A stretch of DNA of 64,000 nt from an uncultured Solirubrobacteraceae bacterium (GCA_963843485.1 CAWJKK010000015.1:213128-277127), one strand, 5' to 3'. Shown: positions 3,630-63,674, counted from the stretch's first letter. The notes: generated by a model not told the origin, from the letters alone. A program made the numbers and translations.

Positions 3630-4420
3630 CGGTCCGCGAGGCGGTCGAGCCGCCCTCCCACGACCGTCACCGTGCGGTGGACCGGGCGCATCAGCCACGG
3701 CGCGCGCACGTGCTTGGCCGCGAAGCGGTCGACCGAGGCGGCGAGGTGCGCGTCGCGCGCGGCGGTGACGCCGCCCGCGTGGCTCACGCGCACCGACGGC
3801 AGGTAGCGGACGCGGCCGCCCTGCCGGCGGATCCGCAGGAACAGGTCCTCCTCCTCCTTGTAGAGGAAGAACTCGGGGTCGAAGCCGCCGACGCCGTCGA
3901 ACGCCTCGCGGGTGACGAGGCACGCGGCGCCGGACACCCAGGCGGCGTCGACCACGTGGTCGCGCAGCCGGTAGTGGCTGTGCCCGGCCGCCAGGGCGAC
4001 GCGGGCGCGGAAGCCCTCGAGCTCGCCGTGGTCGCGCGGATCGACCGCGCCCGTGGGCGAGATCAGCTGCGGGCCGACGGCGGCGACGCCGTCGTCCAGC
4101 GCCGCGCGCAGGCGCTCGATCGTGCGCGGCTCGAACAGCAGCGAGTCCGGGTTGAGCAGGAACAGCGCACGCGCGTCGTGGCGCGCGGCGAGCAGGTTGT
4201 GGCCGCCGCCGAAGCCGAGGTTCTCCTCGGAATCGACGAACTCCACGGCGGGATGGTCCTCCGCGAGCCGGCCGAGGTCGTCCCCCGAGCCGTTCTCGAG
4301 CACGAGCACGCGGGCGCTGAAGTCCGCGCCCTCGAGGTCCGCGAGCACGCTGCGCAGGCACGGCTCGAGGTGACGGCGCGTGCGGAAGTTGATGACCTGG
4401 ACGGCAACGTCGAGTGGCAC
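3626..4420 (-). CDS. glycosyltransferase family 2
   Basis: Intact 264-aa ORF with VLENGSGDD, NLGFGGGHN and GAACLVTREAF..GGFDPEFFLYKEEEDL, typical of GT2 (GT-A fold, DxD-like). Confidence 0.85.
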   Translation of the reverse strand: MPLDVAVQVINFRTRRHLEPCLRSVLADLEGADFSARVLVLENGSGDDLGRLAEDHPAVEFVDSEENLGFGGGHNLLAARHDARALFLLNPDSLLFEPRTIERLRAALDDGVAAVGPQLISPTGAVDPRDHGELEGFRARVALAAGHSHYRLRDHVVDAAWVSGAACLVTREAFDGVGGFDPEFFLYKEEEDLFLRIRRQGGRVRYLPSVRVSHAGGVTAARDAHLAASVDRFAAKHVRAPWLMRPVHRTVTVVGGRLDRLADR

Positions 4421-4440
4421 GCCGCCATCATAGGTTCGCG

Positions 4441-18574: not shown

Positions 18575-18921
18575 GCCGCGCGCTGCTGCTCGCGCTGGTG
18601 CTGCTCGCCGCGCTGCCGGGCGCGGCCTCGGCGGCGCCCGCGCGCCTGCTCGTCGAGGCGCGCGAGTTCAACCTCGTGCTCTCGCGCCCGGCGGTCAAGG
18701 CGGGCCGCGCGATCGTGCAGCTCGCCAATCGCGGCGAGGACCCGCACGACCTGCGCATCGTCCGCTTCGGCGGGCGCACCGCCGGCACGATCGGCGAGGT
18801 GCTGCCGGGCGAGGTCGGCGAGTGGGAGGGCCGCCTGCGGCGCGGCCGCTACCGGCTCGTCTGCACGCTCGAAGGCCACCGCTCGTACGGCATGCGCGCG
18901 GTCCTGCGCGCCCGCCGCTAG
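18571..18921 (+). CDS. secreted cupredoxin-like (type-1 copper site-like) protein
   Basis: GTG at 18571 (GTGA overlap with the DUF1501 stop). Signal peptide VSRALLLALVLLAALPGAASA. Ligand-like pattern: DPHD...C-TLEG-H-RSYG-M. Confidence 0.6.
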   Translation: MSRALLLALVLLAALPGAASAAPARLLVEAREFNLVLSRPAVKAGRAIVQLANRGEDPHDLRIVRFGGRTAGTIGEVLPGEVGEWEGRLRRGRYRLVCTLEGHRSYGMRAVLRARR

Positions 18922-20386
18922 CGGCGCCCGCGCAGCACCCGCTCGTCGCCGCGCCGGAGCGTGACGCGCTCGGCGTCGAGGCGCTCGAGGTACGCCTGGG
19001 CGAAGCGGCGCGAGGTGCCGAGCTCGTCGCGCGCGCCGGCCAGCGTGATCGAGCCGTCGCGCTCGATCGCCGCGACGATCGCCTCGCGCGACGGCGGCGA
19101 GCGCGTCGGGGTGGACGTGCAGCGAGCGCCCGAGCCGCACCGCGCGACCGTGCGCGCGCAGCGCCGCGAGCTCCGCGGGCGTGCCGATCGTCGGCCGGCG
19201 GCTCGGTCCCGGCCGCGCGCAGCCGCTCCTCGACGGCGAGCGCGGCCTCGGTCAGCGGCGGCGGCGCGGGCGGCGGCGGCGCGGCGCGGCGGCGGCGGCG
19301 GCGGCGGGCTGCCTCGCCGGCGAGCCGCGCGACCACCTCGGGCGACGGCCCGTGCCGGCGCGGCGCCGGCATCGAGGACGACGCCGCCGCCGAGCGTGTC
19401 CGGCGGCGACGTCGCGCGCATCACGACGCGGTCGCCGCGCACGGCCACGATCGGGCCGCTCGAGCCGCAGCTGCCAGAACCGCCCGCCGAGCGCGACGAG
19501 CGCGCGCCGGCGTGTCGCGCGTGCCGTGGTGCACGACGACCGCGCGCCGCCGGCGGCAGCACGAGGTCCAGCTCGACGTCGACCCGGTACGTCGCCGCGA
19601 TCGCGTCGCCGAGCCGACCACGACGTCGCCGCGCGCGACCTCCTCGCGGCCGAGCGCCGGCGAGGTTGAGCGCGACGCGCTGGCCGGCCTCGGCGCGCTC
19701 GACCGGCTCGTCGTGGACCTCGACGGAGCGGATGCGGGCGCGTCAGGCCGGACGGGAGGACCGTGACGGCGTCGCCGCGGGCGGCGGTCCCCGACCAGAG
19801 CGTGCCGGTCACGACCGTGCCCGCGCCGCGCACGCTGAACGCGCGGTCGACGTGCAGGCGCAGCGGCGCCGCCGGCGCCCGCCCGGCCGGGCACCGCCGC
19901 GGCCGCGCGTTCGAGCGCGGCGCGCAGCGCGTCGAGCCCCGCCCCGGTGCGCGCCGACACCGGCACGACGGCAGCGCCCGGCAGCAGCGCCGCCGCTTCG
20001 GCGGCCGCGCGCTCGGGGCCGGCCAGGTCGGCCTTCGTGATCGCCACGACGCCCGTCGTCACGCCGAGCGCGGCGAGCACGGTCGCGTGCTCGCGGGTCT
20101 GCGGCATCACGCCGTCGTCGGCGGCGACGATCATCAGGCAGCAGGTCGATCCCGGTCGCGCCCGCGACCATCGTGCGCACGAACCGCTCGTGGCCCGGCA
20201 CGTCGACCACCGACAGCCGCCGGCCCGACGGCAGCTCGAGCGGCGCGTAGCCGAGCTCGATCGAGATCCCGCGCTCGCGCTCCTCCGGCAGCCGGTCGGT
20301 GTCGACGCCGGTCAGCGCCTGCACGAGCGCGGTCTTGCCGTGGTCGATGTGCCCCGCCGTGCCGAGCGTGAGCGGCGACGGCTCAT
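18918..20386 (-). CDS. selB: selenocysteine-specific elongation factor SelB (at least 5 frame breaks)
   Basis: Contains [14 protein letters not shown] (G1), DVPGHERF (G3) and ITKADL (G4). Domain II: [18 protein letters not shown]-terminal winged-helix region: [25 protein letters not shown]. The pieces are spread over ORFs 19809.., 19421.., 19252.. and 18918... Confidence 0.8.
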
Positions 20387-21702
20387 GCGACGACGCGCGC
20401 GCGACCTCGACGGCCTCGGCGTCGGTGAGCGTGCGCGGGTCGAGCAGCAGCCGCGCCGTCCTCGATCCGCCCGACGACCGGCGGGTCGCCCGCGCGCAGC
20501 CGCGCGGCGAGCTCGTCGCGCGAGACGCCCGTCGACGGTCACCGCCACCACCGGGCCGGGGAGCTCGAGCAGCGGCAGCGCGCCGCCGCCGACGCGCGCG
20601 ACCGCGTCGACGACCTCGCGCGCCCGCCGATCGCCGCCGCCAGGCGCTCGCGCCCGCGCCGCGCAGCTCGCCTCGCCGGCGGTCAGCATCGCGAGCACCG
20701 GGATCTCGCGCGCGCGCCGGCCGGGTCGCGGTGGAGGCGCAGCGTCGCCTCGAGCGCGGCGAGGGAGAGCTTGTCGAGCCGCAGCGCGCGGGCGAGCGGG
20801 TGCGCGCGGGCGGCGGCGACCGCGTCCGCGCGCCCGACGAGCAGGCCCGCCTGCGGCCCGCCGAGCAGCTTGTCGCCCGAGAAGCAGACGAGCGCGGCGC
20901 CGGCGCGCGACCGAGCGGCGCACCGGCGGCTCGTCGCGCAGGGCGTCGAAGTCGTCGCCGAGCACGCCCGAGCCGACGTCGTCGATCACCGGCACGCCGA
21001 GCTCGCACAGCTCCTCGATCTCGACGCTCCTGCGACGAAGCCGAGCTGGCGGAAGTTCGACGGGTGGACGCGCAGGATCGCGCCGGTGGCCGGGCCGAGC
21101 GCGCGCTCGTAGTCCGCGCGGCGCGTGCGGTTCGTGGTCCCGACCTCGACCAGCCGCGCGCCCGCCTGCGCGATCACGTCCGGGATCCGGAAGCCGCCGC
21201 CGATCTCGACGAGCTGCCCGCGCGAGACGACCACCTCGCGGCCCGGGCCGGCGAGCGCCGCGGCCGCGAGCAGCGTCGCGCCGGCGCCGTTGTTGACCAC
21301 CAGCGCCGCCTCGGCGCCGGTCAGCTCGCACAGCAGCGCCTCGACGTGGTCGTGGCGCGAGCCGCGGGCGCCGCGTCGCGAGGTCGAGCTCGAGGTTCGA
21401 GTAGCCCTCCGCCGCCCGCGCGACCGCCGCGCGCGCCGCGGCGGCCAGCGGCGCGCGGCCGAGGTTCGTGTGCACGATCACGCCGGTCGCGTTCAGCACC
21501 CGCCGCAGCCGCGGGCGCTCGGAGGCCTCGGCCCAGGCCCGCGCGCGCGCCGCCAGATCGGCGTCGCCCGTCGTCGCCGGCGCGCAGCTCCGCGCGCCGC
21601 TCCGCCAGCACCGCCCGTGCGGCCGCGAGCGCCACCGCGCGCGGCGCGTCGACCTCCGCCGCGAGAGCGTCGACCGGGGGCAGCGCAGCGCAGGTCGGAC
21701 AC
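20383..21702 (-). CDS. selA: L-seryl-tRNA(Sec) selenium transferase SelA (at least 5 frame breaks)
   Basis: GTG at 21702 gives MSDLR then (A)LPPVDAL after a 1-nt break. Contains [53 protein letters not shown] and [13 protein letters not shown] (PLP lysine region). The pieces lie in several frames. Confidence 0.8.
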
Positions 21703-23404: not shown

Positions 23405-24941
23405 GTGCTGACGTGGGCAAGAGCTGCGGTCGCAGCGGCGAGTGTCGGAGCCGCGCTGCTGGCGAGCGCCGGCAGCGCCTCGGCCGCGGACGGCTCCAAC
23501 CCCGCTGGACCACTGCTCGACGCGGTCACGGGGGTGACCGAGCGCACGACCGAGACCGTGCGCCAGACCGGCGAGACGGTGGCGGCGACCACGGGCCAGG
23601 TCGCTGCGGTCGTCGACAACACCGGATCCCAGGTCGCGGCCGCGACCCAGGGCGTGGCCCAGGCCGTGCGCGAGATCGCACCCGCTCCGGCGCCGCGCCC
23701 CGCGCCCGCCGCAGATCCCGGCTCCGGCTCGGCCGGCGGCGGTTCCGGCGCGACCGGCGGCTCCGGCTCGTCCGGCGCCGACCGGCGGGGTCCGGCTCGA
23801 CCGGCGCGTCCGGCGGGTCCGGCGCGACCGGCGGGTCCGGCTCGTCCGGCGCGGTCCGGGTCCGGCCGAGTCGGCGCGTCCGGCTCGTCCGGCCCGGTCG
23901 GCGGGTCCGGTCCGATCGCCGTCCGGCGGGTCCGGCGCGGCCGGCGGCTCCGGTTCGATCGGCGGGTCCGGCGCAGCCGGCGGCCCGGCGTCCGGCCCGA
24001 TCGGCGGCTCCGGTCCGATCGGCTCGTCCGGCTCGTCCGGCGCGGCCGGCGGCGTCCGATCCGATCGGCGTCGGTCCGGCGGTCGGTCCGGCTCCGGCCG
24101 GCGGCGGGTCCGGTCCGACCGGTGGGTCCGGTCAGGCCGGCGGCGGACTCGCGGCGGCGACGCGCTGATCGGCGGCGCGACTCGCGGCGGCGACGCGCTG
24201 ATCGGCGGCTCGCTCGTGACCGTGCTCGACGCCGCGCCGACCGCCATCACCGGCCTGCTCGGCGCGATCGCGGTGACCGTGGACGGGACCGGCCAGGTGG
24301 TCGCCGGCGTCGCGAACGGGCTGGCGACGACCGTCGAGGGCACCGGCATCGCGGTGGACGGCCTGCTCGACGAGCTGGCCACGACCGTCGACGAGACCGT
24401 CTCGGGCGTCATCCAGCCTCCGCCGCCGACCGCGGAGCCGCCACCGGCGGCCGTCGAGACGAAGACGCCGCCCGGCACGGCCGCTGCGCCACCCGCGCCC
24501 GCTGCGGCGCCGCTGCCCGCTGCCGTGCTCGCCGCACCACCACCACCATCTTCGCCCGTGCCGTTTGCCGGTCGCGCTCCACGCCCGCGCGCACCCCGTC
24601 CCGGCGCTCGTCGCGGTGACGCATGACCGGGCAGCGGCCGCGCGGCCGGTGCCGGAGACGCCTGCGGCCACCGCCCCGGCGACCGTCGCGGCGCGGCCCG
24701 AGGCCGTAGGCGGCGGCAGCACGCAGCAGCGCGCTCCGCCGCTCATGACGGCGCCGCCGCCGCGGGCAGCGGCCTCGCCGGCGCGGCCTCGGCCGCAGCG
24801 GCGGCGGCCACCTCGGCCGCTCCCGCGATCCTTCTCGCCGCGGCGCTGCTCGCCGCAGGCTTCCTCCTCGCCCGGCTGCTCGCGCCCTACGCGCAGCGGC
24901 CGGCGCTCGCGTTCGTCGCAGTTCTCGAACGGCCTGGCTGA
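23405..24941 (+). CDS. secreted repetitive protein: signal peptide, GGSGxx hexapeptide repeats, Pro-rich segment, C-terminal TM helix (several frame breaks in the repeats)
   Basis: GTG at 23405 gives MLTWARAAVAAASVGAALLASAGSASA. The repeats lie at 23718-24146. The segment TRGGDALIGG...TVDGTGQVVAGV... is in the frame of ORF 24216. The tail AILLAAALLAAGFLLARLL runs to TGA at 24939-24941. It could be two genes. Confidence 0.5.
23718..24146 (+). repeat. degenerate 18-bp tandem repeat encoding GGSG(A/S/P)(T/S/A/I) units
   Basis: Units such as ggcgggtccggcgcgacc / ggcgggtccggctcgtcc / ggcggctccggtccgatc are read directly, about 20 or more units. Confidence 0.7.
24147..24212 (+). repeat. 33-bp tandem duplication (ACTCGCGGCGGCGACGCGCTGATCGGCGGC...), encoding TRGGDALIGG twice
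   Basis: The two copies start at 24147 and 24180 and are identical over 30 nt. Confidence 0.8.
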
Positions 24942-25019: not shown

Positions 25020-25833
25020 ATGTGGCGTTCCGCGACAGCGGCAGTTGCCGTCACGCTCACGCTCGCTGTAGCACCAGCGGGCGCGGGAGCCCAGACACCG
25101 CAGGTAGCCGGCACGGTCCAGGCCGCGCTGGCCACCCCGGTCACGGCCGCCGTCCCGGCGGTCGCACAGGAAAGCGACGACTCGGCCGCCGCGGTCGAGA
25201 TCGAGCCCGTACCAGCCACCGCCGCGCCGATCACGGTCGAGAGCGGCAGCGCGCCAGCGACGCTCCTGGATTCGGCGGACGCGCCGATACGTGTCGTGGC
25301 CCCTGAGAACCGCGAAGCGTCGACGTCGACCGGTGGTACCGGCGGGGCCACCGGCGACGTCGCGATCGGGACAGCGCAGCCCGGACCGGCCGGGCTCGCC
25401 GGCGACGACGCGGGCCCCCAGGATCTGGGGGATCCCGACGAGCCGCTCGGCGAGCCGGCCGATCCGGTCCCGGCCGTGCCCGACGACGGCGGCGTCGGCG
25501 TCCCGCAGCCGGCGGCACCCGACGACGAGGCGGCAGGCGGCGAGCCCGAAGGCGAGCGACCGCCGGCCGCGGACGACGAGGCCACCGGTGGCGCCGAGTC
25601 GCCCACCGCGGGCGATGACGGGGACGTAGCGCCGGACACGGGCGGTGACGCAGCGCCGCGCGAGAGCGACCGCGAGGCGGCACCGGATGCCCCGGCGCAG
25701 GCCCCCGACCCCGACCGGCGGCGGCGAGGCGGAGACGCTGCCGTTCACGGGCCTCGGTGTCGGCCTGCTCGTCCTACTCGGCGCGCTGTGCCTGACCTTC
25801 GGACTCGCGGGGTGGCGCCTGGCCGCGCGCTGA
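25020..25833 (+). CDS. acidic surface protein with N-terminal signal peptide and C-terminal LPXTG-type sorting signal (frame break near 25705)
   Basis: Starts MWRSATAAVAVTLTLAVAPAGAGAQ, followed by a D/E/P/A-rich body. The C-terminus in the frame of ORF 25645..25833 reads LPFTG-LGVGLLVLLGALCLTFGLAGW-RLAAR. Confidence 0.65.
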
Positions 25834-25847
25834 GCCACCAAGACCTC

Positions 25848-25864
25848 CCCCAGGCCCCCTGGGG
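25848..25864 (+). terminator. hairpin CCCCAGG-ccc-CCTGGGG downstream of the LPXTG gene
   Basis: A perfect 7-bp stem, 15 nt after the stop at 25833, in a convergent intergenic region. Confidence 0.45.
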
Positions 25865-25974
25865 CGATGTGGGCGCGCGCAGGCGAGGACGGCGGTACCG
25901 GCGGGGTCGCCGTCCCCCGACGCGGGCGACCCACGCCGGCAGCGCCGGTCGCCAGCGAGCGGCCGGCGCTCCGG

Positions 25975-27148
25975 CTACCGCCGGTTCACGTTCTCGCAGT
26001 TGCTGGTGCGGACGCTCCGGTTGGTCCCGACGTTGACCGTGTCGCCGCCCGGCCCGCAGTCGATCGTGACCGCGGAGCGCGAGTAGGCGTCGATGCGATC
26101 GTTGCCCGTCCCGGCCTGCACGACGTTGGTGCCCGAGCCGCGCAGGTAGATGTGGTCGTCGCCCCAGCCGCCGAGGATCGTGTTCGAGGACGGGCCGCCC
26201 TGGAGGTAGTCGTTGCCGCCCTCGCCGTCGATCACGTTGCGCCCGCGGCCGCCGTAGACGGTGTCGGCGCCGTCGCCGGCCGCGATCCGGTCGGTGCCGC
26301 GCGAGCGGCCGGACGGGAGGCGGTTGCCCCACAGGATGTCGTCGCCGCCGAGCCCGATCAGGACGTCGCCGCCCGGCCCGCCGAGCAGCGTGTCGTTGCG
26401 CTCGGTGCCGCGCAGGCGGCTGCCGTTGTCTGGAGCGCGCGAACTTGGTCCGGCCCTCGGTCGGGTCCTTCTCGCGCGCCGCCGCGATGATCGACTCGCA
26501 GTTGCGGATCTCGCGCTGCCGGATCGACTTGCGGTGCGACGGCCCGCCTTCGCCGTTCGGCGGGTCGATGTAGATCGTGTCCGCGCCCGGGCCGCAGTCG
26601 ACGAGCTCGATCTTGTCGCCGACGTTGATGTGCACGCGGTCGTTGCCCTCGCCGCCGAGGATCGTCTCCGGCCCGGAGTCGGAGTGGATCTCGTCGTCGC
26701 CCGAGCCGCCGTCGAGCACGTCGGCCGCACCGCCGCCGTGGATCAGGTCGTTGCCCGAGCCGCCGCTCGCGCGGTCGCCCGCCCCGCCGGTGTCGATGTT
26801 GTCGTTGCCGGCGCCGCCGTCGATGTCGTCGCGCCCGAAGTCGCCGACGATCGTGTCGTCGCCGTCGCCGCCGTCGATCTCGTCGTCGCCCGAGCCGCCG
26901 TTGATCAGGTCGTTGCCGCCACGGCCCTGGATCCGGTCGCCGCCGGTCTCGCCCCAGAGCGTGTCGGCCGCCGAGCCCCCGTACAGGCGGTCGCCGCCGC
27001 CCATCCCGAAGATCTCCGTCGGTACGCCGGGACGCGCCCGCAGCGTGTCCCGCCCGGGCGTGCCGCTCTTGGTCTGGGCGGCCGCTTCCGCGGCCGGCAA
27101 TGCGGCGAGCAGCACCGCGCTGATGAAGAGAGTGATCGATCGGGACAA
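25975..27148 (-). CDS. secreted RTX-type calcium-binding repeat protein (frame break near 26430)
   Basis: Signal peptide [25 protein letters not shown]. Many GGxGxD nonapeptides ([19 protein letters not shown]...). Each of the two RTX blocks ends in a DCGPGxDT...NCE module. The C-terminal half is in ORF 25975..26730. Confidence 0.75.
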
Positions 27149-41574: not shown

Positions 41575-42754
41575 TGCTGCGCGTCGCCACCGCCGGCTCG
41601 GTCGACGACGGCAAGTCGACGCTGATCGGCCGCCTGCTGCACGACTCGAAGTCGCTGATGGCCGACGAGCTCGGCACCGCCGCCGACCTCGCGCGGCTGA
41701 CCGACGGGCTGCGCGCCGAGCGCGAGCAGGGCATCACGATCGACGTCGCCTACCGCCACTTCGCCACGCCGACCCGCCGCTTCGTGCTGCACGACTGCCC
41801 CGGGCACGCGCAGTACACGCGCAACATGGCCACGGGCGCCTCGACCGCCGACCTCGCGCTCGTGCTCGTCGACGCGCGGCGCGGGATGACCGAGCAGTCG
41901 CGCCGCCACCTGGCGATCGCCGCGCTGCTCGGCGTGCCGGGCGTGACCGTGCTCGTCAACAAGATGGACCTCGCGGGCTACGCCGAGGAGCGCTTCGACG
42001 CGGTCGTGCGCGAGGTGATCGACTGGTCCGCCCAGCTCGGCCTGCACGGCGTCGCCTTCATCCCGGTCTCGGCGCTGCACGGCGACAACGTGGTCGAGCG
42101 GTCCGAGGCGATGCCGTGGTACGCCGGCGAGTCGCTGCTCGAGCACCTCGAGGCGGTCCCGGCCGGGGTCGCGGCCGCCGACGGCCCCGCGCGGCTCCCG
42201 GTCCAGTACGTGATCCGCGCCGCGGGCCGCCGCTGGTACGCCGGCCGCCTCGCCGCCGGCACGCTGCAGGTCGGCGACGAGGTCGTCGTGCTGCCCTCGG
42301 GCACGCGCAGCCGCGTCGCCGCGTTCGAGGACGGCCGCGAGCAGGCCGCCGCGCCGCGCTCGGTCGCGGTCGCGCTCGCCGACGAGCTCGACGCCGGCCG
42401 CGGCGACGCTCCTCGCCCACGCCGACGGCGCGCCGGAGCCCGTGCGCGAGCTGACGGCGACGGTCTTCTGGCTCGGCGACGAGCCGGCCCGCCCGGGCGC
42501 GCGCTACCTCGTCAAGCACACGACCCGCGCGGTGCCCGGCCAAGCTCGAGGCGATCGAGCACCGGCTCGACGTGACGACGCTGGCCGAGGATCCCGCGCA
42601 CGAGCTCGAGCTGAACGCGATCGGCCGCGTGCGGCTGCGGCTCGGCTCGCCGCTCGTGCCCGACCCGTACGACCGCGTCCGCGCCACCGGCGCGTTCATC
42701 CTCGTCGACGAGGCCACGAACGACACCGTCGGCGCCGGAATGGTCGCCGGCTGA
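41574..42754 (+). CDS. cysN: sulfate adenylyltransferase subunit 1, GTPase, without fused APS kinase domain (frame breaks near 42410 and 42540)
   Basis: GTG at 41574 overlaps the cysD TAG. Contains GSVDDGKSTLIGRLL (G1), DCPGHAQY (G3) and NKMDL (G4). The C-terminus FILVDEATNDTVGAGMV is in ORF 42572..42754. Confidence 0.85.
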
Positions 42755-42791
42755 CGATCGCGGCGCTATCTTGGTCCGGCTCGGAGCGCGG

Positions 42792-43076
42792 ATGCCGGGA
42801 TTCCAGGTGAACACGGACGAGCTCGCCGCGGGCGGCGGGCAGCAGGGCGTAGTCGCCGCCGCGGTCGGCAGCACCGCCGGGCTGGTCCGCGCCGCCGGGT
42901 CCGCGATCTCTGAGGGCGCCGGCCACTCGGGCGCCTCCGCCGCCGGCGAGGCCTGGGGCGGCGCCTGGCAGGCCGAGCTGGCCGCGCGCGCCGAGGTGCT
43001 GCGCCGCGCCGCCGCGAACCTGAACGCGGCCGCCGAGGCCTACCGCGAGACCGACGACGGGCAGATGCGCGGGTGA
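42792..43076 (+). CDS. WXG100/EspC-like small helical protein (94 aa)
   Basis: ATG at 42792 lies within ORF 42771..43076. It has a central W-G-G motif (GEAWGGAW) and a C-terminal AAEAYRETDDG, typical of ESX-type small secreted proteins. Its stop overlaps the next start (GTGA). Confidence 0.6.
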   Translation: MPGFQVNTDELAAGGGQQGVVAAAVGSTAGLVRAAGSAISEGAGHSGASAAGEAWGGAWQAELAARAEVLRRAAANLNAAAEAYRETDDGQMRG

Positions 43077-44713
43077 CGCGGCCGGGCGAGTCCGTCGAGG
43101 GCATCAGCGTCCCGCGCGGCAGCCCCGGCGCGCTGCGCGGCGCCTCCTCCCAGCTGCAGGGCGTCGGAGCGCAGCTCAGCGCGTACTCGAGCCAGATCGC
43201 CGGCCTGCCCTCGCTGATGCAGAGCTGGGCCGGCCCCGGCAGCTCGGTCTTCGCACAGCTCACCGGCCAGGAGTCGACGTCGATGGACGCGACGGCGAGC
43301 CAGGTCACGTTCGCGGCCATCAGCGTCGGCAACGCGGCCGAGGCGCTCGCGGACGCGCAGCGCAAGGCGCGCCGGGCGATCGCGCGGGCCGAGCGTGCCC
43401 GCGACGGAGATCGACCAGGCGCGCGAGGCGATCCGCGAGGCGAAGGAGGCGCAGGAGACGGCGCGCGGGCGGATGGTCTTGGCCGCGGCCGCACGCGAGG
43501 CGGCCGAGGTGCAGATGCTGGCGGCGGTGGTCGACATGGTCGCCGGCGACGGCGCGGCCGCGGCGGCGCGCGACGCGGCCGACCGCGGAGTACCGCGACG
43601 CCGAGCGCGACCTGCAGGAGGCCGAGCGGCGCGAGCGGCGCGCGCGCGACCGGCTCGACGAGGCCGAGGACGACATGCGGCGGGCGCGCGCGGACGGGCG
43701 CGAGGCGGCGCAGGACGCGGAGCTGACCGCCAGCGGCCTGCAGATGACGATGTCGACGCTCCCGGCGGCGGCGTTCGCGATGCCGGGCGCGCCGGCGCGC
43801 GAGCACATCGCGGCCGCCGGCGGCATCCCGCGCACGCAGCCGCGCGACGTGCCGCTCTCCGAGCGCGAGCCGCCGGAGAGCTGGCCCGGGTTCATGAAGG
43901 AGTGGTACAAGGTCGGCCGCGGCGGGGCGACCGCGATCGACGGGGTCGATCGGCCTCGGCGAGAAGGCGGTCGAGAACCCGGAGCGGATCCCCGGCGCGC
44001 TCGGCGCGCTCGGCCGCAGCGCCTACGACGACCCGATCGGCACCGGCAAGTCGCTGGTCGGCTACGACGAGCTGGCCGCGGGCCGCTACTCGGACTGGCT
44101 CGGCCAGTTCGGCATCGGCGCCCTGGCCGGCGGGGCGGGAACCGTGCCCGCGCGGGCCTCGCGGATGAACCGCGTGGTCGGCAGCCCGCGCGTCCAGCCG
44201 CTCGGGCGCAAGCCGATGCCGGACAACGCGGGCAAGTTCGCCGGCCGCCGGTTCGACTTCGGCCGCGACGGCTTCGGGGCGCGGCCCGGCTACTCGGCGC
44301 CGGCGCTCTCCGCCGCCGAGCGCTCGTACCTCGCCGAGCGCTACCCGCGCGGCGTGCGCTTCACCCGTGCCGGCTACCCGGTGTTCACGCCGTACGCCGC
44401 CGAGCGCGTGGTCGTCCCTGACCTCGACGGCACCGCCGACGACTTCGAGCGGGCGAACGAGGCCGCCGGTCTGCCGGCCAAGCCGAAGGGCTACACGTGG
44501 CACCACGTCGAGGACGGGCGGACGATGGAGCTCGTCGAGACGCGCCTGCACCGGGCGGTGCGCCACACCGGCGGCGCCGCGGGCCTGCCCGAGACGAGGG
44601 GCACGATCGCGCCCGGAGGCGCGTTCACGCCGTTCGAGCGCGGCGCCGCGCAGGGCGGCGGCGCGGCGGGCTTCCTGGCCGCGCCGATCGGCGCCGAGGC
44701 GAGCGCGCCGTGA
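43073..44713 (+). CDS. polymorphic toxin: N-terminal WXG-type domain, coiled-coil linker, C-terminal WHH-type HNH/EndoVII nuclease (about 3 frame breaks)
   Basis: The N-terminus has LMQSWAGPGSSVF (WxG at 43226-43234). The middle has charged coiled-coil segments (EIDQAREAIREAKEAQE; EYRDAERDLQEAERRERRARDRLDEAEDD). The C-terminus in ORF 44144..44713 reads AGYPVFTPY...DDFERAN...KGYTWHHVEDGRTMELVETRLHRAVRHTGG (WHH at 44498-44506). Confidence 0.7.
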
Positions 44714-45235
44714 TCGAGCTGGACGAGCCGAGGCCTCCGGCGACCGCGGAGGACGTCGCCGACGCCGAGCGCGCACTGGCCGAGTTCGGCCATACGCTGC
44801 CGGCCGGCTATCGCGCGTTCCTCGCCGAGCACGACGGCGGGCGCCCGGTCAGGACCGTGTTCGCCTACGAGCAGGACAACGAGACCAAGGAGAGCGTCGT
44901 CGACGCCTTCCTCGGCGTGGCGCCGGTGGAGTCGCCCGGGCTGAACCTGCAGTCGACCGTCGGCATCCTCGGCGAGCGCATGCTCCCCGGCGTGGTCCCG
45001 ATCGCCGACGACCCGTTCGGCAACCTCGTCTGCATCGACACCCGCGAGGCCGACGACGGCCCGATCGTCTTCTGGGACCACGAGTACGAGGGCGACCCGC
45101 CCGACGCGGCGAACCTCTACCCGATCGCGCCCGACCTGGAGCGCTTCCTGGCTTCGCTGCGCAAGCGCGAGCCGCTGCCGCCGCGGGAGCCGAGCCGAGC
45201 CGCGCGGGCTCAAGCGCCTGTTCGGCCGCCGGTGA
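44710..45235 (+). CDS. SMI1/KNR4 (SUKH-1) family immunity protein (frame break near 45190)
   Basis: GTG at 44710 (GTGA overlap with the toxin stop). Contains DVADAERALAEFGHTLPAGYRAFLAEHDGG...IADDPFGNLVCID...IVFWDHE. The inferred tail GLKRLFGRR ends at TGA 45233-45235. Confidence 0.7.
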
Positions 45236-45650
45236 TCGACCTCGACCTGCGCGGGCTGCTGGAGCTGCGCGCCGAGCTCGAGAGCGGCGCGCTGTTCGGC
45301 CCGGCGCAGGGAGCGCCGCCGTACGACCCGGAGCTGCCGCCGCTGCTCACGGTCGCGTGGCTCGAAGAGCCGCCGGGAGCACGCTCGAGGACGTCGTCGG
45401 CGAGGAGCTGGCCCGCGGCGGCCCGGCGACGCTGCTGATCGACCGCGAGACCGTGCGGCTCGGCGACGCCGACGCGGTGCGCACGTTCACCCTGCACCGC
45501 GGGCCGCTGGGGCAGGCGACGGCGAGCGAGCAGTGGCGCGCGCTGGCCGGCGGGCGCCGCTGGACGGTCTCCGCCCTGACCGCGCTGCACGACCAGCCGC
45601 AATGGGGCCCGCGGCTGGCCGCGATCGCCGGCGGCCTGCGCCCGCGATGA
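45232..45650 (+). CDS. hypothetical protein translationally coupled to the immunity gene (frame break near 45375)
   Basis: GTG at 45232 (GTGA overlap) with high GC3. VIDLDLRGLLELRAELESGALFG... continues in the frame of ORF 44367..45650. No recognisable domain. Confidence 0.45.
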
Positions 45651-46276
45651 GCGCGCTGATGTTCGACGAGGCGACCGGCGAGGTCAGCGGGCCGGCCGCC
45701 GAGGTCGACGCGCTGATCGACGGCGGGGCGGCCGGCGTCCCGTGGCTGGCTGCCGCAGCCGCGGCGGCGCGGGCGCCGCGGCTGGTCGTGACGCTGCTCG
45801 GCGAGGTCCCGCCGCTGCGGATCGCCGGCGACGCCGCGCACTGCCTCGTCACGACCGACCTGCCGGGCGGCCGCCGCACCGCGCTCGCGATCGCGGCCGG
45901 CGACGTCGCGGTCGTGATCGCCGCGCGCGTCGGTCTCGAGCCGCGCCCGCGGCCGTCCGAGCCCGCGATCCGGCTCGCGCCCGGCGCGATGGCGACGCTG
46001 ATCGGCCACCGGCGGGCGCACGGCCACGGCCTCGAGCCGGGAGTCGCGGCCTCCCTCCAGCGCAGGCTCGACCACGGCGTGCGCCACTGGACGGTGCGGA
46101 TCGCGCGCGGCGAGGCGCGGCGGAACCTCGAGGTCGTCGACGGGCCGGGCGGGATCTGGCGAGTGCGCCCGGTAGGAGAGCTCGTCGAGCTCTCCCCGTC
46201 CGCCGGCACCGAGGTGCTGCGCGAGCTGGTCGCGCTGGTGGGTGACAGGGAAGCGGCACGGCCCACGGCCCCATGA
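45647..46276 (+). CDS. hypothetical protein, 209 aa (weak EspG-like impression only)
   Basis: ATG at 45647 (ATGA overlap) lies within ORF 45533..46276. Intact, with high GC3. Segments ...AARVGLEPRPRP... and ...LEVVDGPGGIWRVRP..ELVELSPSAGTEVLRELVALV recall T7SS EspG chaperones from memory only. Confidence 0.5.
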   Translation: MSALMFDEATGEVSGPAAEVDALIDGGAAGVPWLAAAAAAARAPRLVVTLLGEVPPLRIAGDAAHCLVTTDLPGGRRTALAIAAGDVAVVIAARVGLEPRPRPSEPAIRLAPGAMATLIGHRRAHGHGLEPGVAASLQRRLDHGVRHWTVRIARGEARRNLEVVDGPGGIWRVRPVGELVELSPSAGTEVLRELVALVGDREAARPTAP

Positions 46277-46294
46277 TGCGGGCCGGCCGCTTCC

Positions 46295-47494
46295 CTATCG
46301 GACTGAGCGGAATCCGCTCAGCGGCTTGTTCCCCGCTCCCTTCAACGCGGCGCGGGCACCGAACTGGCGGTCGATCCACGCGATCCTGCGCTTGAGCCAT
46401 CCGCGCAGGAAGCGCATCTCGGCGCGGTGGCTGCCGCGCGCCACCGGGTTCGGCCAGATCTCGCGGTCCAGGATCGGCCAGCGCGGAAGTTGGCGACGAC
46501 CGCGCCGCGTCAGCTCGCGCTCGGCGCGAGCGACGGTCGCGAGCACGTCGCGCCGCAGCCCGGCGCGGCGCAGCGCGCGCCAGCGCTGCGCGTAGCGGCG
46601 CGTGAAGCGGCGATCGCGAACAGCCGCTCGGCCCAGTCGCGCTGCTGCGAGCATCCAGCCGCGCGAGGCGGCGGCTCGGCCCGTAGTCCGAGTTGCCCAT
46701 CGAGATGTCGAAGTCCCAGATCGGGCCGAGGCGCAGCTTCCCGTCGCCGTGCAGCGCCATGTACGTGCTGGCGTGGAAGCCGTCCTCGTTCTTGAACAGC
46801 TCGTTGAGCAGCACGAAGTCGACCGCCGAGCGCCTCGTCGATCCAGCGCCGCCAGCTGCCCGGCCCGTAGAGCGCGCGCTCGGCGGCGCGGACCGGCCGC
46901 GCCAGCCGCTCGGCGCGGGCCGCGCGAGAGGTCGCCGCGCTCCGGGTCCTCCCAGACGATCGGCCGCCGCTTGACCGGGGTGCGGAACGACGGCGTCCTT
47001 CGACTGCGCCTGGAACGGGAAGGTGAACTCGTACAGCGCCTCGCCCTGCACCCGGTCGTCGCCGAGCTCGAGCTGCTCCATCAGCACGTAGACGCCGTGG
47101 TGGCGCCCGTTCAGGCGCAGTTCACGAACCGCGTCCGCGCGGCGAAGCGGCCGATCGCGCGCGCCGTCCGGTACGCGACGACGTTGCGCATCAGCGTCTT
47201 GTCGTTGTACGGCGCGTAGAGCACCCAGTCGTCGTCCTCGGGCAGGCCGAGCAGCGCGGTGTCGTCGGCCAGCTCGAGCGCGTACGACTTCTTCGGGAAC
47301 ATCTGCGAGGACTGGCCGCGGGTCTCGATCTCGATCCGGCCGCGGTAGCCGGGCATCCGCAGCTGCGCGCCGATCTTCGGCTCGTTCGGGATCTCGCGCG
47401 CAGCGTCGATCCGGACGACCGGCAGGTCGGCGGAAGCGGCGGCCGGCGCGAGCAGGCCCGCGGCCGCGGCCAGGATGGGGATGATCCAGCGCAT
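46295..47494 (-). CDS. CotH kinase family protein, secreted (paralog 1; several frame breaks)
   Basis: Signal peptide MRWIIPILAAAAGLLAPAAASA. Contains FPKKSYALEL, DDDWVLYAPYNDKTLMRN, NGRHHGVYVLMEQLE, LNELFKNEDGFHASTYM, GPIWDFDISMGNS and C-terminal RFLRGWLKRRIAWID. Confidence 0.75.
46303..46321. terminator. hairpin CTGAGCGG-aat-CCGCTCAG between convergent genes (overlaps the last codons of the CotH gene)
   Basis: A perfect 8-bp stem, read directly. Confidence 0.4.
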
Positions 47495-59934: not shown

Positions 59935-61100
59935 TCAGCGCAACGCTGTGTCCAGCCACGCCGTGCGGCGCGTGAGCCAGTCCTTCAGTGGCGGCGACGG
60001 CCGCCGTCGTGCGAGCCGTGCACGGGCTGGTTGACGGAACAGCGGGCGGTCGAGCACGTCGCCAGCGGGCGAAGTTGCGCCGCGCCGGGCCGCGCAGCTC
60101 GCGCGCGTGGCGGTCGGCGCTCGCCAGCAGCGCCTCGAGGATCCCGTCGGCGCGCAGCTCGCGCCAGCGCGCGCGCGAGCGCGGCCTGGAACGCCGGGTC
60201 GGCCAGCAGCGCGGCTCGCCCACGGGCGGTCCGCCAGCAGCCAGCCGTCGGGCGCCGACATGGCGCGGATCGATCGTGTTGCCGGCGCTGAGGTCGAAGT
60301 CCCAGACCGGGCCGAGGTGCGAGCTTGCCGTCCTCGGGCTGATGCGAGGTACGTGCTCGAGAGGAACGCGTCCTGGTTCTTGAACAGCTCGGCGTGCAGC
60401 ACGTAGTCGACCGCCGACGCCTCGTCGAGGTGCGCGGCGCCAGCCCGGGCCGCCGAGCGCGGCCTCGAACGCCTCGACGCAGGCGCGCGGCCCGCGCTCC
60501 TTCTCGTCGGCCTCGTCGGGCTCGGCGTGGACCACGGTCAGCCCGCTGGCGGACGCGGAACGACTCGTCGTCGGCGTCGAGCCTTGTCGCGGCTCGGTCA
60601 GCTCGAGCAGCGCGTCGCCCTGCACGCGCGGTCGCTAGCTCGGCGGCTCGATCAGCACGTACACGCCGCGGTAGCGGCGGTTGACGCGCAGCTCGACGAA
60701 GCGCGTGCGGCTGCGCCGCGAGCCCGATCCGCCGCGCCGTGCGCGTGCGCGAGCACGTCGCGCAGCAGCGTCGGGTCGGTGTGGAACGCGTTCAGGTCCC
60801 AGTCGTTCTCGCGCGGCATGCCCGAGCAGCCGCACGTCGCTTGTCGGTCTCGATCGCGTACGGCTTCTTGGCGAACGCGCTGCGAGGACTGAGCCGCGCA
60901 GCTCGATGCCGACGCTGGTAGGTGCCGGCTGCCGACCGTTGAGCCGGGCCGGGACCTTCGGGTCGTCGCGGATCTGCTTCTTCGCCGTCGATGCGCGACC
61001 TTCGGGACGTCGGCCGGCAGCCGCCTCGGCGCGTCAGCGCGAGCGCGACCGCGGCGACCGGGGCGGCGCGGAAGTGCCGCGCGCAGCAGCGGCCGCAGGC
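59935..61100 (-). CDS. CotH kinase family protein (paralog 2; many frame breaks; 5' boundary approximate)
   Basis: Pieces: FAKKPYAIETDK, GMPRENDWDLNAFHTDPTLLRDVLAH, TRFVELRVNRRYRGVYVLIEP, ELFKNQDAF, LGPVWDFDLSAGN, RARWRELRADGILEALL and C-terminal LKDWLTRRTAWLD. Confidence 0.65.
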
Positions 61101-62489: not shown

Positions 62490-63674
62490 TCACCCGAGTC
62501 GCGGCAGGTTGCCGTCCAGCCAGGCGATCCGGCGGTCGAGCCAGCGCTCGCAGCGCGCGCACGTGGCCGCGTGCGGCTGCCGCGCGGGCGGTCGCCGCCG
62601 GCGGGCCAGCGCGCGGCTGTCGCGCCGGCGGCCGCCGCGCGCAGGCGCGCGCTCGTGCGTTCGCGACCTGCGCAGCAGCCGCGCCGCGCAGGCCGTCGCG
62701 GCGCAGCTCGCGCCAGCGGCGCGCCATCGCGCGGGCGAACGCGCGGTCGCGGTAGAGCGCGCTCGGCCCACGGGCGGTCGGCGAGCATCCAGCCCGTCGA
62801 GCGCGCGCGCTCGGCGCCACGCGGCCGCGCGCCCATCGAGATGTCGAAGTCCCAGATCGGGCCCGAGCCGCAGCCGGCCGCCCGGCGCGCCGGTCATGAA
62901 CGTGCTCGCGCGCATCCCGTCCTGGTTCTTGAACAGCTCGTTGAGCAGCAGGTGGTCGACCGCCGCTGCGCGCGTGCAGGTGGCGCCGCCAGGCGCCGGG
63001 CCGGCCGCGGTAGAGCGCGCGCTCGGCGCGCGCGACGCGGCGCGCGGATCGCGCGCGCCTCGCGGCGCTCGAGAGGTCCTCGCGCTCCGGGTCCTCCCAC
63101 ACGACCGGCAGGCCGCGTGACCGGCGTCCGGAACGACGGGTCCTTGCGCGCGCGCCTGCCGCGCGCGAGGTCAGCTCGAGCAGGAAGCGCGTCGTCGCCG
63201 CCCGCACGCGGTCGTCGTGGAGCTTGAGCTTCTCCATCAGCACGTAGACGCCGTGCGTAGCGGCCGTTGATCGCGAGCTCGACGAAGCGCGTGCGCGCGG
63301 CGTAGCGGCCGATCCAGCGCGCGGTCTCGTAGGCGAGCACGTTGCGCATCAGCGTGCGGTCGTTGTAGGCGGCGTACAGGACCCAGTCGTCGTCGGCCGG
63401 CATCCCGAGCAGCGGCGACGTCGCGGTTCTCGCCCTCGGCGTCGCGCAGCTCGACGGCGTAGGACTTCTTCGGGAAGCGTGCGCGACCAGCTGGCCGCGC
63501 AGCTCGATCGCGACGGCGCCCGTCGAAGCCGGGCGCGCGCAGCGCGCCGGGACGTCCGTCGTCGCCGATGCCGCGCTCGGGCTCGACGTGACGCGCGGCA
63601 GCGCGCGGCGGCGGCGGCGGCGGCGGCAGCGCGAGCGCGACGGCGCGGCGAGGGCGGTCGAGGGCGGAGGGCAT
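62490..63674 (-). CDS. CotH kinase family protein (paralog 3; many frame breaks)
   Basis: ATG at 63674. Pieces: FPKKSYAVELRDAEGE, MPADDDWVLYAAYNDRTLMRNVLAYETARWIGRYAARTRFVEL, VYVLMEKLKLHDDRV, WDFDISMG-type region, AMARRWRELRRDGL and C-terminal ERWLDRRIAWLD. Confidence 0.7.

Follow-up and report, generated by a model that had tools for sequence, protein, structure and literature searches.

The five overlapping genes at positions 42792–46276 (+ strand) probably constitute a translationally coupled type VII (ESX-like) polymorphic toxin cassette, whose DNase toxin would be delivered with the help of chaperones and neutralized by a SUKH protein. The window, by which we mean the whole analyzed stretch of 64,000 nucleotides, stems from a high-GC bacterium near Solirubrobacteraceae metagenome genomes (Thermoleophilia-class relatives). 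The gene order is g1, toxin, SUKH, g4 and g5, and each gene shares four nucleotides with the next, namely GTGA at 43073–43076, 44710–44713 and 45232–45235 and ATGA at 45647–45650. An earlier note on this DNA had described a cassette of three genes at 42792–45235. The sequence features that it quoted are all present and its three genes are real and GTGA-joined, but the cassette is five genes long since two further overlapping genes follow downstream. Its type VII polymorphic-toxin reading is supported by the WHH and SMI1_KNR4 domains, the T7SS_signal domain in homologues, the EspG fold of g5 and the exchange of toxin C-termini. The small helical partner, the toxin with a helical N-domain and the downstream immunity gene are laid out as in cassettes of the PEST, Eat and LXG kind. 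The position behind cysDN, which had appeared abrupt like that of a fresh insertion, is on the contrary conserved: at least six related Solirubrobacteraceae metagenome contigs carry all five genes in this order and with 4-nt overlaps 3′ of cysDN (L002, L003, L005, L008, L009 and L085/L086). The features of the cassette are compiled in Table 1.

Table 1. Coordinates of the cassette genes, toxin domains and toxin frameshifts, counted from the first nucleotide of the window
Feature	Position	Strand	Description
g1	42792–43076	+	Intact ORF, 94 aa, ATG 42792 to TGA 43076; PE/EsxB/Tap-like helical partner
Toxin gene	43073–44713	+	About 545 aa after frame correction; GTGA overlap with g1
Toxin N-domain	43073–43765	+	aa 1 to ~230; W-x-G loop SWAGPG at aa 51–56, then long antiparallel helical hairpin
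Toxin frameshift 1	43393–43403	+	One extra base, GACGAG>GACGGAG; frame switch 2>0; removal restores RAR(D/E)EIDQ as in homologues
Toxin frameshift 2	43583–43586	+	One extra base, GACGCG>GACCGCG; frame switch 0>1; homologues read AAD-AEYR
Linker/pre-toxin region	43766–44182	+	aa ~231–366; motifs EPPExWPG and GTGK..GYDEL..DW.GQ; end of the shared delivery module
Toxin frameshift 3	43945–43950	+	One extra base; frame switch 1>2; homologues read AI.GV.GL
WHH (HNH/EndoVII) nuclease domain	44354–44596	+	Variable C-terminal payload; Pfam and PDB matches
SUKH-1 (SMI1/KNR4) immunity gene	44710–45235	+	About 173–176 aa after correction; GTGA overlap with the toxin gene
g4	45232–45650	+	About 139 aa; distantly DcrB/DUF1795-like (PsbP/Mog1-like fold); putative co-chaperone or adaptor
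g5	45647–46276	+	Intact ORF, 209 aa, compact EspG fold; ATGA overlap with g4; putative type VII substrate chaperone

The toxin had been described as a protein of about 545 aa with an N-terminal WxG. The motif is indeed found (QSWAGPG), but the gene reads as a single ORF only after three corrections of one nucleotide each, which were derived from a GC3 frame plot (frame path 2>0>1>2), a frame HMM and colinear intact homologues of about 546 aa. The SUKH gene likewise requires one correction near 45193 to reach its TGA at 45233–45235. DNA alignment to L088, a short-read contig 97% identical to the window that served as reference for the indels of SUKH and g4, locates a 4-nt insertion near 45193–45196 (AGCC of a GAGCC repeat, absent from L088, which reads through) and a 1-nt deletion in g4 (CCC>CC near 45373). 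If the three interrupted genes (toxin, SUKH and g4) were truly frameshifted, the cassette would be a decayed remnant from which orphan immunity and accessory genes survive. Such a course would agree with the corrections needed (three in the toxin, one each in SUKH and g4) and with the existence of toxin-free orphan SUKH-g4-g5 loci (L087), yet we consider it very unlikely. Putative frameshifts number about 94 over 55.5 kb of coding sequence window-wide, i.e. about one per 590 coding nucleotides, and the toxin is no exception with one per 547 nt. Even the essential sulfur-assimilation genes, which are 82–94% identical in protein to intact orthologues, contain two to six frameshifts each (sir 6, cysD 2, cysN 2). 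The indels relative to L088 amount to one homopolymer loss and one short-repeat gain, GC3 stays at 0.97–1.0 throughout the corrected-frame pieces, and in-frame stops and degraded stretches are absent. Since such indels occur window-wide, including in sir, cysD and cysN, the toxin frameshifts are better explained as assembly errors than as decay, and with those of SUKH and g4 understood in the same way the cassette is, judged from its sequence, most likely functional. As a practical warning, at an indel rate of about one per 600 coding bases an ORF-based annotation of the window would miss the toxin altogether.

At its C-terminus the toxin reads AGYPVFTPY...DDFERAN...KGYTWHHVEDGRTMELV...LH..VRHTGG, which the earlier note had taken as the hallmark of the WHH clade of HNH/EndoVII toxin nucleases. 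An HMM check bears this out, as Pfam WHH (PF14414) matches aa 470–504 with 57.2 bits against a cut-off of 25.1 (E = 1.4e-15) and matches 41 of 41 homologues; Colicin-DNase is matched as well (4e-11). W475, H476, H477, H492 and H497 of the catalytic core are invariant in 41 sequences, and it is by a motif of one W plus four H that WHH nucleases are defined (PMC13515810). The C-terminal domain further matches the solved RhsP-WHH toxin in sequence (8bd1_A, 6.9e-21; also 8h8a/b/c), and the structural model of a homologue, P0001, matches the RhsP-WHH/RhsPI entry 8bd1_A in Foldseek (4.7e-5, TMt 0.76).

Homologues of the whole toxin (n = 64) are mostly 541–552 aa long where full-length and align colinearly at 48–62% identity and 95–100% query coverage. 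Four relatives share only aa 1 to ~365 of the toxin, at 48–61% identity, and end differently: P0049 and P0050 in a Col-Pyo_DNase-like domain, P0054 and P0061 in C-termini of unknown type. The similarity to the window toxin stops at residue 364–366 in P0049, P0050 and P0054 and at 345 in P0061. Invariant columns of the linker extend to W341 and G343 even among relatives with other toxin domains. Since the first ~365 aa are thus common to proteins with different C-terminal toxin domains, the toxin is polymorphic.

In the P0001 model, the helices of the toxin N-domain span residues 18–43, 55–153 and, after a turn, 160–227 (pLDDT 80–98), and the W-x-G lies in the loop between the first two; model confidence is low across the linker region. 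W52 is invariant and G54 at least 90% conserved in 41 sequences. The Pfam T7SS_signal domain (PF21725) matches 22 of the 41 toxin homologues at E ≤ 0.1, the best being P0036 with 27.9 bits against a cut-off of 27, and relatives with other payloads reach 24.1–24.6 bits; the toxin of the window itself has no match at this threshold. Its N-domain matches EsxA (3zbh) weakly (E = 0.08–0.1), and a fold search returned only generic long-helix (F-BAR) matches and neither PPE nor LXG. Pfam PE (PF00934), PPE (PF00823) and LXG (PF04740) were found neither in g1 and the toxin (E ≤ 1) nor in the 41 homologues (E ≤ 0.1). The resemblance of g1 and toxin to PE/PPE and LXG proteins is functional only.

The start of g1 lies 37 nt 3′ of the cysN stop and is preceded by GGAG 8 nt upstream, and in relatives the gene is always found directly upstream of the toxin. 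The earlier note had called its product WXG100-like and pointed to a central W-G-G. The small helical protein is there, with EAWGGAW and AAEAYRETDD, but it passes no curated WXG100 or EspC threshold: TIGR03930 (WXG100) scores 12.9 bits against a cut-off of 44.85 (E = 0.099), PF06013 gives no match, and Pfam EspC (PF10824) reaches 20.2 bits, below its cut-off of 23.5 (E = 8e-4). Nor is the W-G-G the hallmark of the family. A conserved W-x-G turn is absent, the orthologues having FGT, FAG, YGA or WGV at this site (W/F/Y-G/A-x-x-W), and only the downstream W59 is invariant. What is conserved is a C-terminal YxxxD (AYRETD), with Y84, E86, T87 and D88 invariant and a length of 94 aa in nine of nine orthologues. 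g1 therewith combines a size of ~100 aa with a C-terminal YxxxD/E motif of the EsxB/PE type. When combined into a profile, the nine orthologues match EsxB/CFP-10 (3fav) over the full length, albeit at E = 1.7, and mutual homology between g1 and the toxin N-domain was not detected.

The third gene follows the toxin directly, an order that is the same in all relatives. Its assignment as SMI1/KNR4 (SUKH-1) holds at the curated threshold, with 72.2 bits against a cut-off of 25.4 for SMI1_KNR4 (PF09346, 7.6e-20), and SUKH_6 is matched with 55.4 bits against 27 (1.1e-14). The protein contains LPAGYRAFLAEHDGG and FGNLVCID.

Both of the remaining genes are connected to known families by remote relatives and, in the case of g5, by fold. 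For g4, which has an intact homologue with 97% identity (P0137), no direct Pfam or NCBIfam match exists, and DcrB (PF08786), which we take to be the former DUF1795, is found neither in seven orthologues nor in P0137. A profile search gave 52 representative matches. Among 38 remote relatives (library-wide E 1.2e-10 to 7.3e-4), ten match DcrB (best 4.4e-8), one matches PsbP and two are fused to EspG, so that at the sequence level g4 is linked to DcrB transitively only. The AF2 model of g5 (pLDDT 92.8, pTM 0.85) gave a clearer picture: its best 18 Foldseek matches in the PDB are all EspG1, EspG3 or EspG5 (6.7e-8 to 1.4e-4, prob 1.0, TM 0.45–0.55), and the next matches follow after a clear gap at prob ≤ 0.33. 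g5 is about 50–90 aa shorter than EspG, and Pfam EspG (PF14011) matches none of 54 family members at E ≤ 1. The sequence link is again transitive only and runs through the fusion proteins P0224 and P0235, whose g5-like C-terminal halves align with g5 (hhalign 96.6–96.7%); that of P0224 scores 27.2 bits against PF14011 (cut-off 27). Searches with g5 and g4 yielded 72 and 55 sequences, respectively, with chaperone-related Pfam annotation in neither set.

The genomic context of the two genes can be read in two ways. g5 shares one overlapping gene string with a putative type VII substrate, and natural g4-g5 fusions occur among the relatives. On L099 and L100, a 95-aa protein, a 417-aa T7SS_signal protein and a 153-aa protein are followed by a 404-aa g4-g5 fusion. 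The fusions thus hold the same cassette position while payload and immunity differ and the N-domain is T7SS_signal, which argues that g4-g5 track the delivery domain and not the payload. In the same vein, a single g4-g5 pair on L001 accompanies several toxins with a common N-domain. On L087, SUKH-g4-g5 is retained although neither g1 nor a toxin lies within 10 kb, which also fits g4 and g5 acting on the immunity side, and on L001 and L006 they stand after arrays of SUKH genes. Together with the lack of a direct family match for both, this would be expected if g4 and g5 were extra or orphan immunity proteins or an unrelated two-gene unit travelling with SUKH. We regard this as unlikely because EspG chaperones are the sole significant structural relatives of g5, and because the remote relatives of g4 belong to DcrB/PsbP-like families, the fold class of the type VI-linked DUF1795 (PMC3239186). 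Based on the EspG fold, the DcrB-like remote relatives, the fusions and the strict linkage to T7SS_signal toxins, the g4 and g5 families are likely export chaperones.

A Pfam scan of the frame-corrected translation, covering nearly the whole window, found no type VII core gene within the 64 kb, in agreement with the earlier statement that EccB/C/D, MycP and other secretion-machinery genes are absent from the window. The homologous cassette on L001, which carries further sets of partner, toxin and immunity genes, is flanked by a YukD+CbiA protein and a 1352-aa FtsK_SpoIIIE ATPase (EccC-like). L090 encodes an EccC-like ATPase that contains three FtsK domains and, after it, a WXG100-fronted protein of 549 aa. 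With the EspG fold of g5 and the YukD protein and ATPase of L001, the case for type VII is stronger than could be seen in the earlier note. If the nuclease were instead an intracellular toxin-antitoxin or anti-phage module, or left the cell by another route, a window devoid of secretion machinery would be unsurprising, as would the weak match of the SUKH protein to the candidate defence protein PDC-M40A (7.5e-6). This reading is most improbable, since a conserved non-catalytic module such as the N-terminal ~365 aa, combined with interchangeable C-termini, is what characterizes delivered polymorphic toxins, homologues carry T7SS_signal, the neighbour g5 has the EspG fold, and an EccC-like ATPase and a YukD protein adjoin homologous cassettes. 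The PADLOC matches on the toxin (JetC, LmuB) are coiled-coil noise. By eye, the toxin N-terminus shows no signal-peptide-like or transmembrane stretch.

For the type VII cassette we propose the following mechanism, in which g1–toxin pairing, chaperone binding, type VII export, DNase activity and SUKH neutralization are all inferred. The N-terminal ~230 aa of the toxin, a WxG helical domain, would pair with g1, whose invariant YxxxD would complete a two-part type VII export signal; such a pairing would mirror PE-PPE, EsxA-EsxB, Tap-EatA and Lap-LXG. With its EspG fold, g5 may keep the elongated g1–toxin complex soluble, probably in concert with the DcrB/DUF1795-like g4, and the pair may pass the complex to an EccC-type ATPase presumably encoded elsewhere in the genome. 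Once exported, the WHH (HNH/EndoVII) nuclease would degrade the DNA of competing cells, while the producer would be protected by SUKH-1 binding to the nuclease domain.

Cassettes of a partner, a WXG-fronted toxin and an immunity protein were predicted in 2011–2012 and have since been shown in mycobacteria and Firmicutes. The three-gene core of partner, WXG-fronted nuclease toxin and SUKH therefore adds nothing conceptually, and the five-gene module matches known kinds, i.e. the mycobacterial PEST and Eat loci and EsaD/EsaE of S. aureus. What is new is g4-g5 as a pair of unannotated, likely chaperones in Thermoleophilia-class relatives. Through the cassette, the known range of this toxin class comes to include Thermoleophilia-class (Solirubrobacteraceae-like) soil bacteria, which the type VII literature that we compared does not mention. 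The g4 and g5 families might serve as genomic markers for type VII toxins, and the pair offers a small, tractable system for how EspG-type chaperones recognize their substrates. More tentatively, and with somewhat less than even confidence, we suggest that g4-g5 represent a dedicated chaperone kit for type VII antibacterial toxins, consisting of a minimal EspG-fold and a DcrB/DUF1795-like protein that are sometimes fused. If true, EspG-type chaperoning would not be a speciality of mycobacterial PE/PPE proteins but would be old and widespread where deep-branching Actinomycetota export toxins, and type VII would make use of a fold that is known from the delivery of type VI toxins. In that case, g4-g5 might point to new type VII toxins and to a type VII variant not yet described in Thermoleophilia-class relatives, one that has an EccC-like ATPase together with a YukD-ParA fusion.

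Among characterized systems, payload and immunity of the cassette have counterparts in the Rhs-WHH toxins, RhsP-WHH/RhsPI of V. parahaemolyticus (8BD1) and YPO3609-YPO3610 of Y. pestis (PMC13515810), which possess the same nuclease domain. YPO3610 is an SMI1/KNR4 immunity protein, and DNA degradation by WHH and its neutralization have been shown (PMC13515810). These toxins are delivered on Rhs proteins, RhsP being linked to type VI, whereas the window cassette shares the payload/immunity pair only. Type VI also provides the precedent for g4, whose remote relatives match DcrB and PsbP: DUF1795 proteins are MOG1/PsbP-like and were predicted to associate with the toxin during type VI delivery (PMC3239186), whereas the context of g4 is type VII. 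Our literature search found no report of the DUF1795/PsbP-like fold in a type VII context.

Within the type VII pathway, the PEST cassettes (phage-encoded ESX-secreted toxins) of Mycobacterium prophages are alike by description. Their cassettes of WXG partner, WXG-fronted toxin and immunity protein are toxic and neutralized in M. smegmatis, and the heterodimer is predicted to be PE/PPE-like (PMC10654092). PEST cassettes reside in prophages, whereas the window cassette occupies a conserved chromosomal position behind cysDN in Solirubrobacteraceae-like genomes and adds DcrB-like and EspG-fold genes that have not been reported for PEST (PMC10654092). EatA of M. abscessus is exported via ESX-4 with Tap partners, and Eat-type loci are reported from throughout the Actinomycetota, where HNH/ENDO nucleases belong to the most frequent payloads (PMC13444075). 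As described there, the Eat locus (TapA1/TapA2-EatA-EatI) resembles the window cassette in its upstream helical accessory, elongated helical toxin N-domain and downstream immunity gene, but has two partners instead of one and a GH183 arabinanase instead of WHH as payload. In the passages searched, EspG is mentioned in introduction and references only, not at Eat loci, and Thermoleophilia are not mentioned.

The chaperone component has its counterparts in two further systems. In the PE-PPE-EspG complexes (PDB 4W4L, 4KXR and 6VHR), whose EspG chains are the best structural matches of g5, the small partner likewise bears YxxxD/E and the larger partner WxG, and an EspG-fold protein is encoded with them. 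g5 is much smaller than EspG (209 aa vs 257–297 aa), the window toxin has considerably longer helices than PPE, its cargo role is that of a putative antibacterial nuclease and not of a PE/PPE surface protein, and Pfam PE/PPE matches are absent. The EsaD/EsaG/EsaE system of S. aureus with EsxB, EsxC and EsxD (T7SSb; PMC10653861, PMC11217815) shares with the window cassette, by description, a nuclease toxin, small helical partners, immunity and an EspG-fold chaperone. It differs in phylum and in using T7SSb, an LXG N-domain, three partners and DUF600 immunity with no DcrB-like gene. The EsaD nuclease needs the chaperone EsaE (PMC11217815), whose EspG fold was predicted despite negligible sequence identity.

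The window has a G+C content of ~75%, and spurious ORFs are plentiful in all frames. We located the true frame by third-position G+C and additionally with an HMM of position-specific composition in all six frames, for which tblastn-supported pieces served as training data. All strings cited in the earlier note were found in the window sequence. While that note had described a cassette of three genes, there are actually five, since two further genes, g4 and g5, follow the SUKH gene. A 4-nt overlap joins the genes at every junction (GTGA, GTGA, GTGA and ATGA), and the order g1-toxin-SUKH-g4-g5 recurs as a unit in related loci (tblastn), where the gene calls likewise show 4-nt overlaps throughout. 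The cysN stop and the g1 start (42754-42792) are separated by a gap of only 37 nt and a scan of 42500-46800 found no promoter- or terminator-like site. The cassette may share a transcript with the sulfate-assimilation genes.

Coordinates of the cassette genes, of related loci and of other features of the window
Feature	Position	Strand	Remarks
g1	window 42792-43076	+	94 aa
Toxin gene	window 43073-44713	+	frame path 2>0>1>2, switches near 43393, 43583, 43949
SUKH gene	window 44710 to TGA 45233-45235	+	frame switch near 45193
g4	window 45232-45650	+	frame switch near 45370
g5	window 45647-46276	+	intact
Fusion cassette, L099	5997-9215		layout as window cassette, more distant; last protein a 404-aa fusion of g4-like and g5-like halves
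Fusion cassette, L100	862-4080		as L099
L001, flanking genes	3571-5133 and 18476-19944		YukD/EccD-N-like ubiquitin fold fused to CbiA/ParA-type ATPase, and EccC-like ATPase
SUKH-g4-g5 module, L087	9050-10612		orphan
selA-selB	window 18923-21568	-	adjoining
Tandem array	window 23723-24146		~37 copies of a 9-nt unit
RTX-repeat protein	window 25394-27016	-	
CotH-kinase-like gene	window 46685-47485	-	
CotH-kinase-like gene	window 60345-60820	-	
CotH-kinase-like gene	window 63169-63477	-	

The frame switches within the cassette could mean that the frameshifts are real and the cassette is pseudogenised, a reading that is less likely in view of several comparisons. The toxin, after frame corrections of one surplus base each, is colinear with dozens of intact proteins, mostly of 541-552 aa, over 95-100% of its length. 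Housekeeping genes are frameshifted as well: tblastn with the intact orthologues of L003, a related locus, revealed 6 frameshifts in sir (sulfite reductase) and 2 each in cysD and cysN, with protein identities of mostly 82-94% over the matched pieces. A count of same-strand frame switches without a nearby stop codon puts the putative frameshifts of the whole window (1-64000) at ~94 over 55.5 kb of coding DNA, a density of 1 per ~590 nt; for the toxin gene, the density is 1 per 547 nt. Single-base and short indels occur throughout positions 1-64000; relative to L088, a short-read contig that is 97% identical, they are located in a homopolymer and a short repeat, as the window gains AGCC inside a GAGCC repeat at the end of the SUKH gene and drops one C of a CCC run in g4. 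L088 reads uninterrupted across both places. Since intact colinear homologues exist, housekeeping genes are affected at an equal window-wide density and L088 reads through, the frameshifts are assembly errors, and we rejected pseudogene decay and treat the cassette as intact. Most genes will come out in pieces if this sequence is annotated by ORF-based gene calling.

The toxin C-terminus matches the Pfam families WHH (PF14414, E=1.4e-15) and Colicin-DNase (4e-11), both passing, and a profile of 41 toxin homologues matched the solved RhsP-WHH toxin 8bd1_A at 6.9e-21. The same structure was matched by fold with a model of the toxin homologue P0001 (4.7e-5, TMt 0.76). Active WHH nucleases are defined by a tryptophan and four histidines (PMC13515810), all of which are invariant in the toxin family. 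Gene 3 passes for SMI1_KNR4 (7.6e-20) and SUKH_6 in Pfam, so that the WHH nuclease and SUKH identities proposed in the earlier note both hold. For the N-terminal domain of the window toxin Pfam gave no match; T7SS_signal (PF21725, 'Putative T7SS secretion signal domain') is present in 22 of the 41 family members, in 1 above the curated cut-off. In the P0001 model this domain consists of a short helix, an invariant WxG loop and a ~95-residue helix doubling back on a ~70-residue helix. From the PDB its profile retrieved EsxA at E=0.08 and otherwise coiled-coil noise, and in the fold search with the full-length model it gave F-BAR-type long helices only, which do not discriminate between a PPE-like and an LXG-like domain. 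Over the first ~365 residues, 48-61% identity is shared with proteins ending in Col-Pyo_DNase-like or unknown C-termini, the WHH payload alone is found at 50-63% identity in Clostridia, Bacilli, Burkholderia and many others, and the best full-length relatives in the genome collection are 44-57% identical. This shared N-terminal part with varied C-termini is the polymorphic-toxin signature. PADLOC assigned no defence-system identity to the cassette; an intracellular toxin-antitoxin role was considered and rejected.

The description of g1 as WXG100-like stood only in part: the W-G-G is present in the window copy but is not conserved, and g1 stays under all curated thresholds (EspC, 20.2 bits versus 23.5; TIGR03930, 12.9 versus 44.85). 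Invariant instead is the C-terminal A-Y-R-E-T-D, a YxxxD motif. The g1 profile had no significant match among PDB sequences (EsxB at E=1.7), and profile-profile comparison found no relationship with the toxin family (probability 0.5%). In PE/PPE pairs, the WxG of PPE lies beside the YxxxD/E of PE, likely as a composite signal (PMC13444075).

Neither g5 nor its 54 aligned relatives matched a family in Pfam or NCBIfam, and the g5 profile had no match among PDB sequences. A confident AlphaFold2 model from the alignment of the 54 relatives (pLDDT 92.8, pTM 0.85) was compared to the PDB with Foldseek, and 18 of 18 significant matches are EspG1, EspG3 and EspG5 chains (6.7e-8 to 1.4e-4), below which the list falls sharply to sliding-clamp noise. 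EspG is a chaperone that binds PE-PPE helical bundles at their tip and directs them to the cognate ESX system (PMC11217815). g4 had no match in direct Pfam and NCBIfam scans, its profile retrieved only ABC-transporter noise from PDB sequences, and hhalign found it unrelated to g5. The g4 profile (46 relatives) identified 52 proteins among 1.84 billion representative proteins; of its remote relatives, 10 of 38 carry Pfam DcrB (PF08786, best 4.4e-8) and 1 of 38 PsbP. Three remote relatives are longer (359-404 aa). Two of these, P0224 and P0235, are fusion proteins whose C-terminal half is a g5 homologue by hhalign (96.6-96.7%), and Pfam EspG (PF14011, cut-off 27) scores 27.2 bits in the C-terminal half of P0224 and 26.7 bits in that of P0241. 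The EspG assignment of g5 is supported by the predicted fold and, transitively, by sequence.

P0235 is the last protein of a cassette found in L099 and L100, where a 95-aa protein, a 417-aa T7SS_signal protein and a 153-aa protein precede it; the payload family of the 417-aa toxin and the family of the 153-aa putative immunity protein are not recognisable. This natural fusion within a T7SS_signal cassette indicates that g4 and g5 form a functional pair, which appears to track the delivery domain and not the payload. The locus L001 holds, beside its homologous cassette, a Colicin_E5-type toxin, a second WHH toxin and several SUKH genes, with a single g4-g5 pair. That g4 and g5 are immunity-side proteins is less likely, even if L087 contains SUKH-g4-g5 while the 10 kb to each side include neither g1 nor a toxin; this module either stayed behind when the toxin was lost or hints at an additional immunity-side role.

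The cassette was previously said to sit abruptly after cysDN. Its site after sir-cysD-cysN is common to L002, L003, L005, L008, L009 and L085/L086, and the four loci present in the genome collection (L005, L007, L008 and L009, with L003 and L007 being the same contig) are labelled Solirubrobacteraceae MAGs. As the site is conserved in relatives, we rejected a recent insertion; the locus is old and stable. Compared to L003, the cassette proteins are 49-61% identical, the flanking cysD and most of cysN ~89-90%. Rapid divergence is usual among conflict genes.

In agreement with the earlier note, the window is without FtsK_SpoIIIE, YukD, EccB/D/E and mycosin genes, as determined by Pfam on ~16,200 aa of frame-corrected translation, and, for the sir-cysDN-cassette stretch, by tblastn and a Pfam scan of its own. 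A role other than type VII could be considered for a cassette placed apart from such genes, but is less likely: in L001, the homologous cassette has on one side a 520-aa YukD+CbiA protein, whose N-terminus also matches the EccD model TIGR03920, and on the other a 1352-aa FtsK_SpoIIIE-domain ATPase. L090 encodes an EccC-like ATPase containing three FtsK domains and, after it, a 549-aa protein fronted by WXG100. The L001 combination of a YukD-CbiA/ParA fusion with an EccC-like ATPase was not found in the parts consulted of the type VII variant survey PMC11217815 and may represent a hitherto undescribed variant among Thermoleophilia-class relatives.

Elsewhere in the window, selA (SelA, 4.4e-119) adjoins selB (GTP_EFTU and SelB-wing_3), hence the organism uses selenocysteine; a tRNA scan of the window found neither tRNA-Sec nor any other tRNA, and an Rfam scan nothing. 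The tandem array (TCCGGCGCG), downstream of a methylmalonyl-CoA mutase gene, reads as Gly-Ala-Ser repeats in one frame and might encode a collagen-like G-X-Y protein; by the frame HMM, the region is non-coding. The RTX protein carries many HemolysinCabind calcium-binding nonapeptide repeats (Pfam 3.7e-36), and no neighbouring type I secretion genes were noticed. Three CotH-kinase-like genes lie within 17 kb, the first immediately downstream of the cassette and oppositely oriented, the last adjoining a DUF4956 membrane protein.

The cassette is best read as a polymorphic toxin module of the type VII (ESX-like) kind, and the interpretation in the earlier note was essentially right. From the observed domain identities, linkage, fusions and context we infer pairing, chaperoning, export and activity: g1 would pair with the WxG helical domain of the toxin to build a composite export signal, the EspG-fold g5 and g4 would hold the elongated complex and pass it to an EccC-type ATPase encoded elsewhere, the WHH nuclease would kill recipient cells and the SUKH protein would protect the producer.

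A prediction from 2011 already paired WXG-fronted toxins of Actinobacteria with SUKH immunity (PMC3239186), and WHH with SMI1/KNR4 is an experimentally demonstrated toxin-immunity pair (PMC13515810). A compact EspG-fold plus DcrB-like pair in such cassettes, a g4-g5-type fusion and a treatment of Thermoleophilia were not found in the cited type VII and toxin papers or in targeted literature searches. The same architecture is seen in the PEST cassettes of Mycobacterium prophages (PMC10654092) and in the M. abscessus Eat loci (PMC13444075). The latter depend on ESX-4 and are reported from across Actinomycetota, where HNH/ENDO nucleases rank among the commonest payloads. S. aureus EsaD/EsaE offers a precedent for a nuclease toxin with a neighbouring EspG-fold chaperone gene (PMC11217815). 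The cassette is real and a variation on this known theme, not new in principle; the present analysis extends it to five genes, assigns likely chaperone roles to g4 and g5 and shows the frameshifts to be artefacts.
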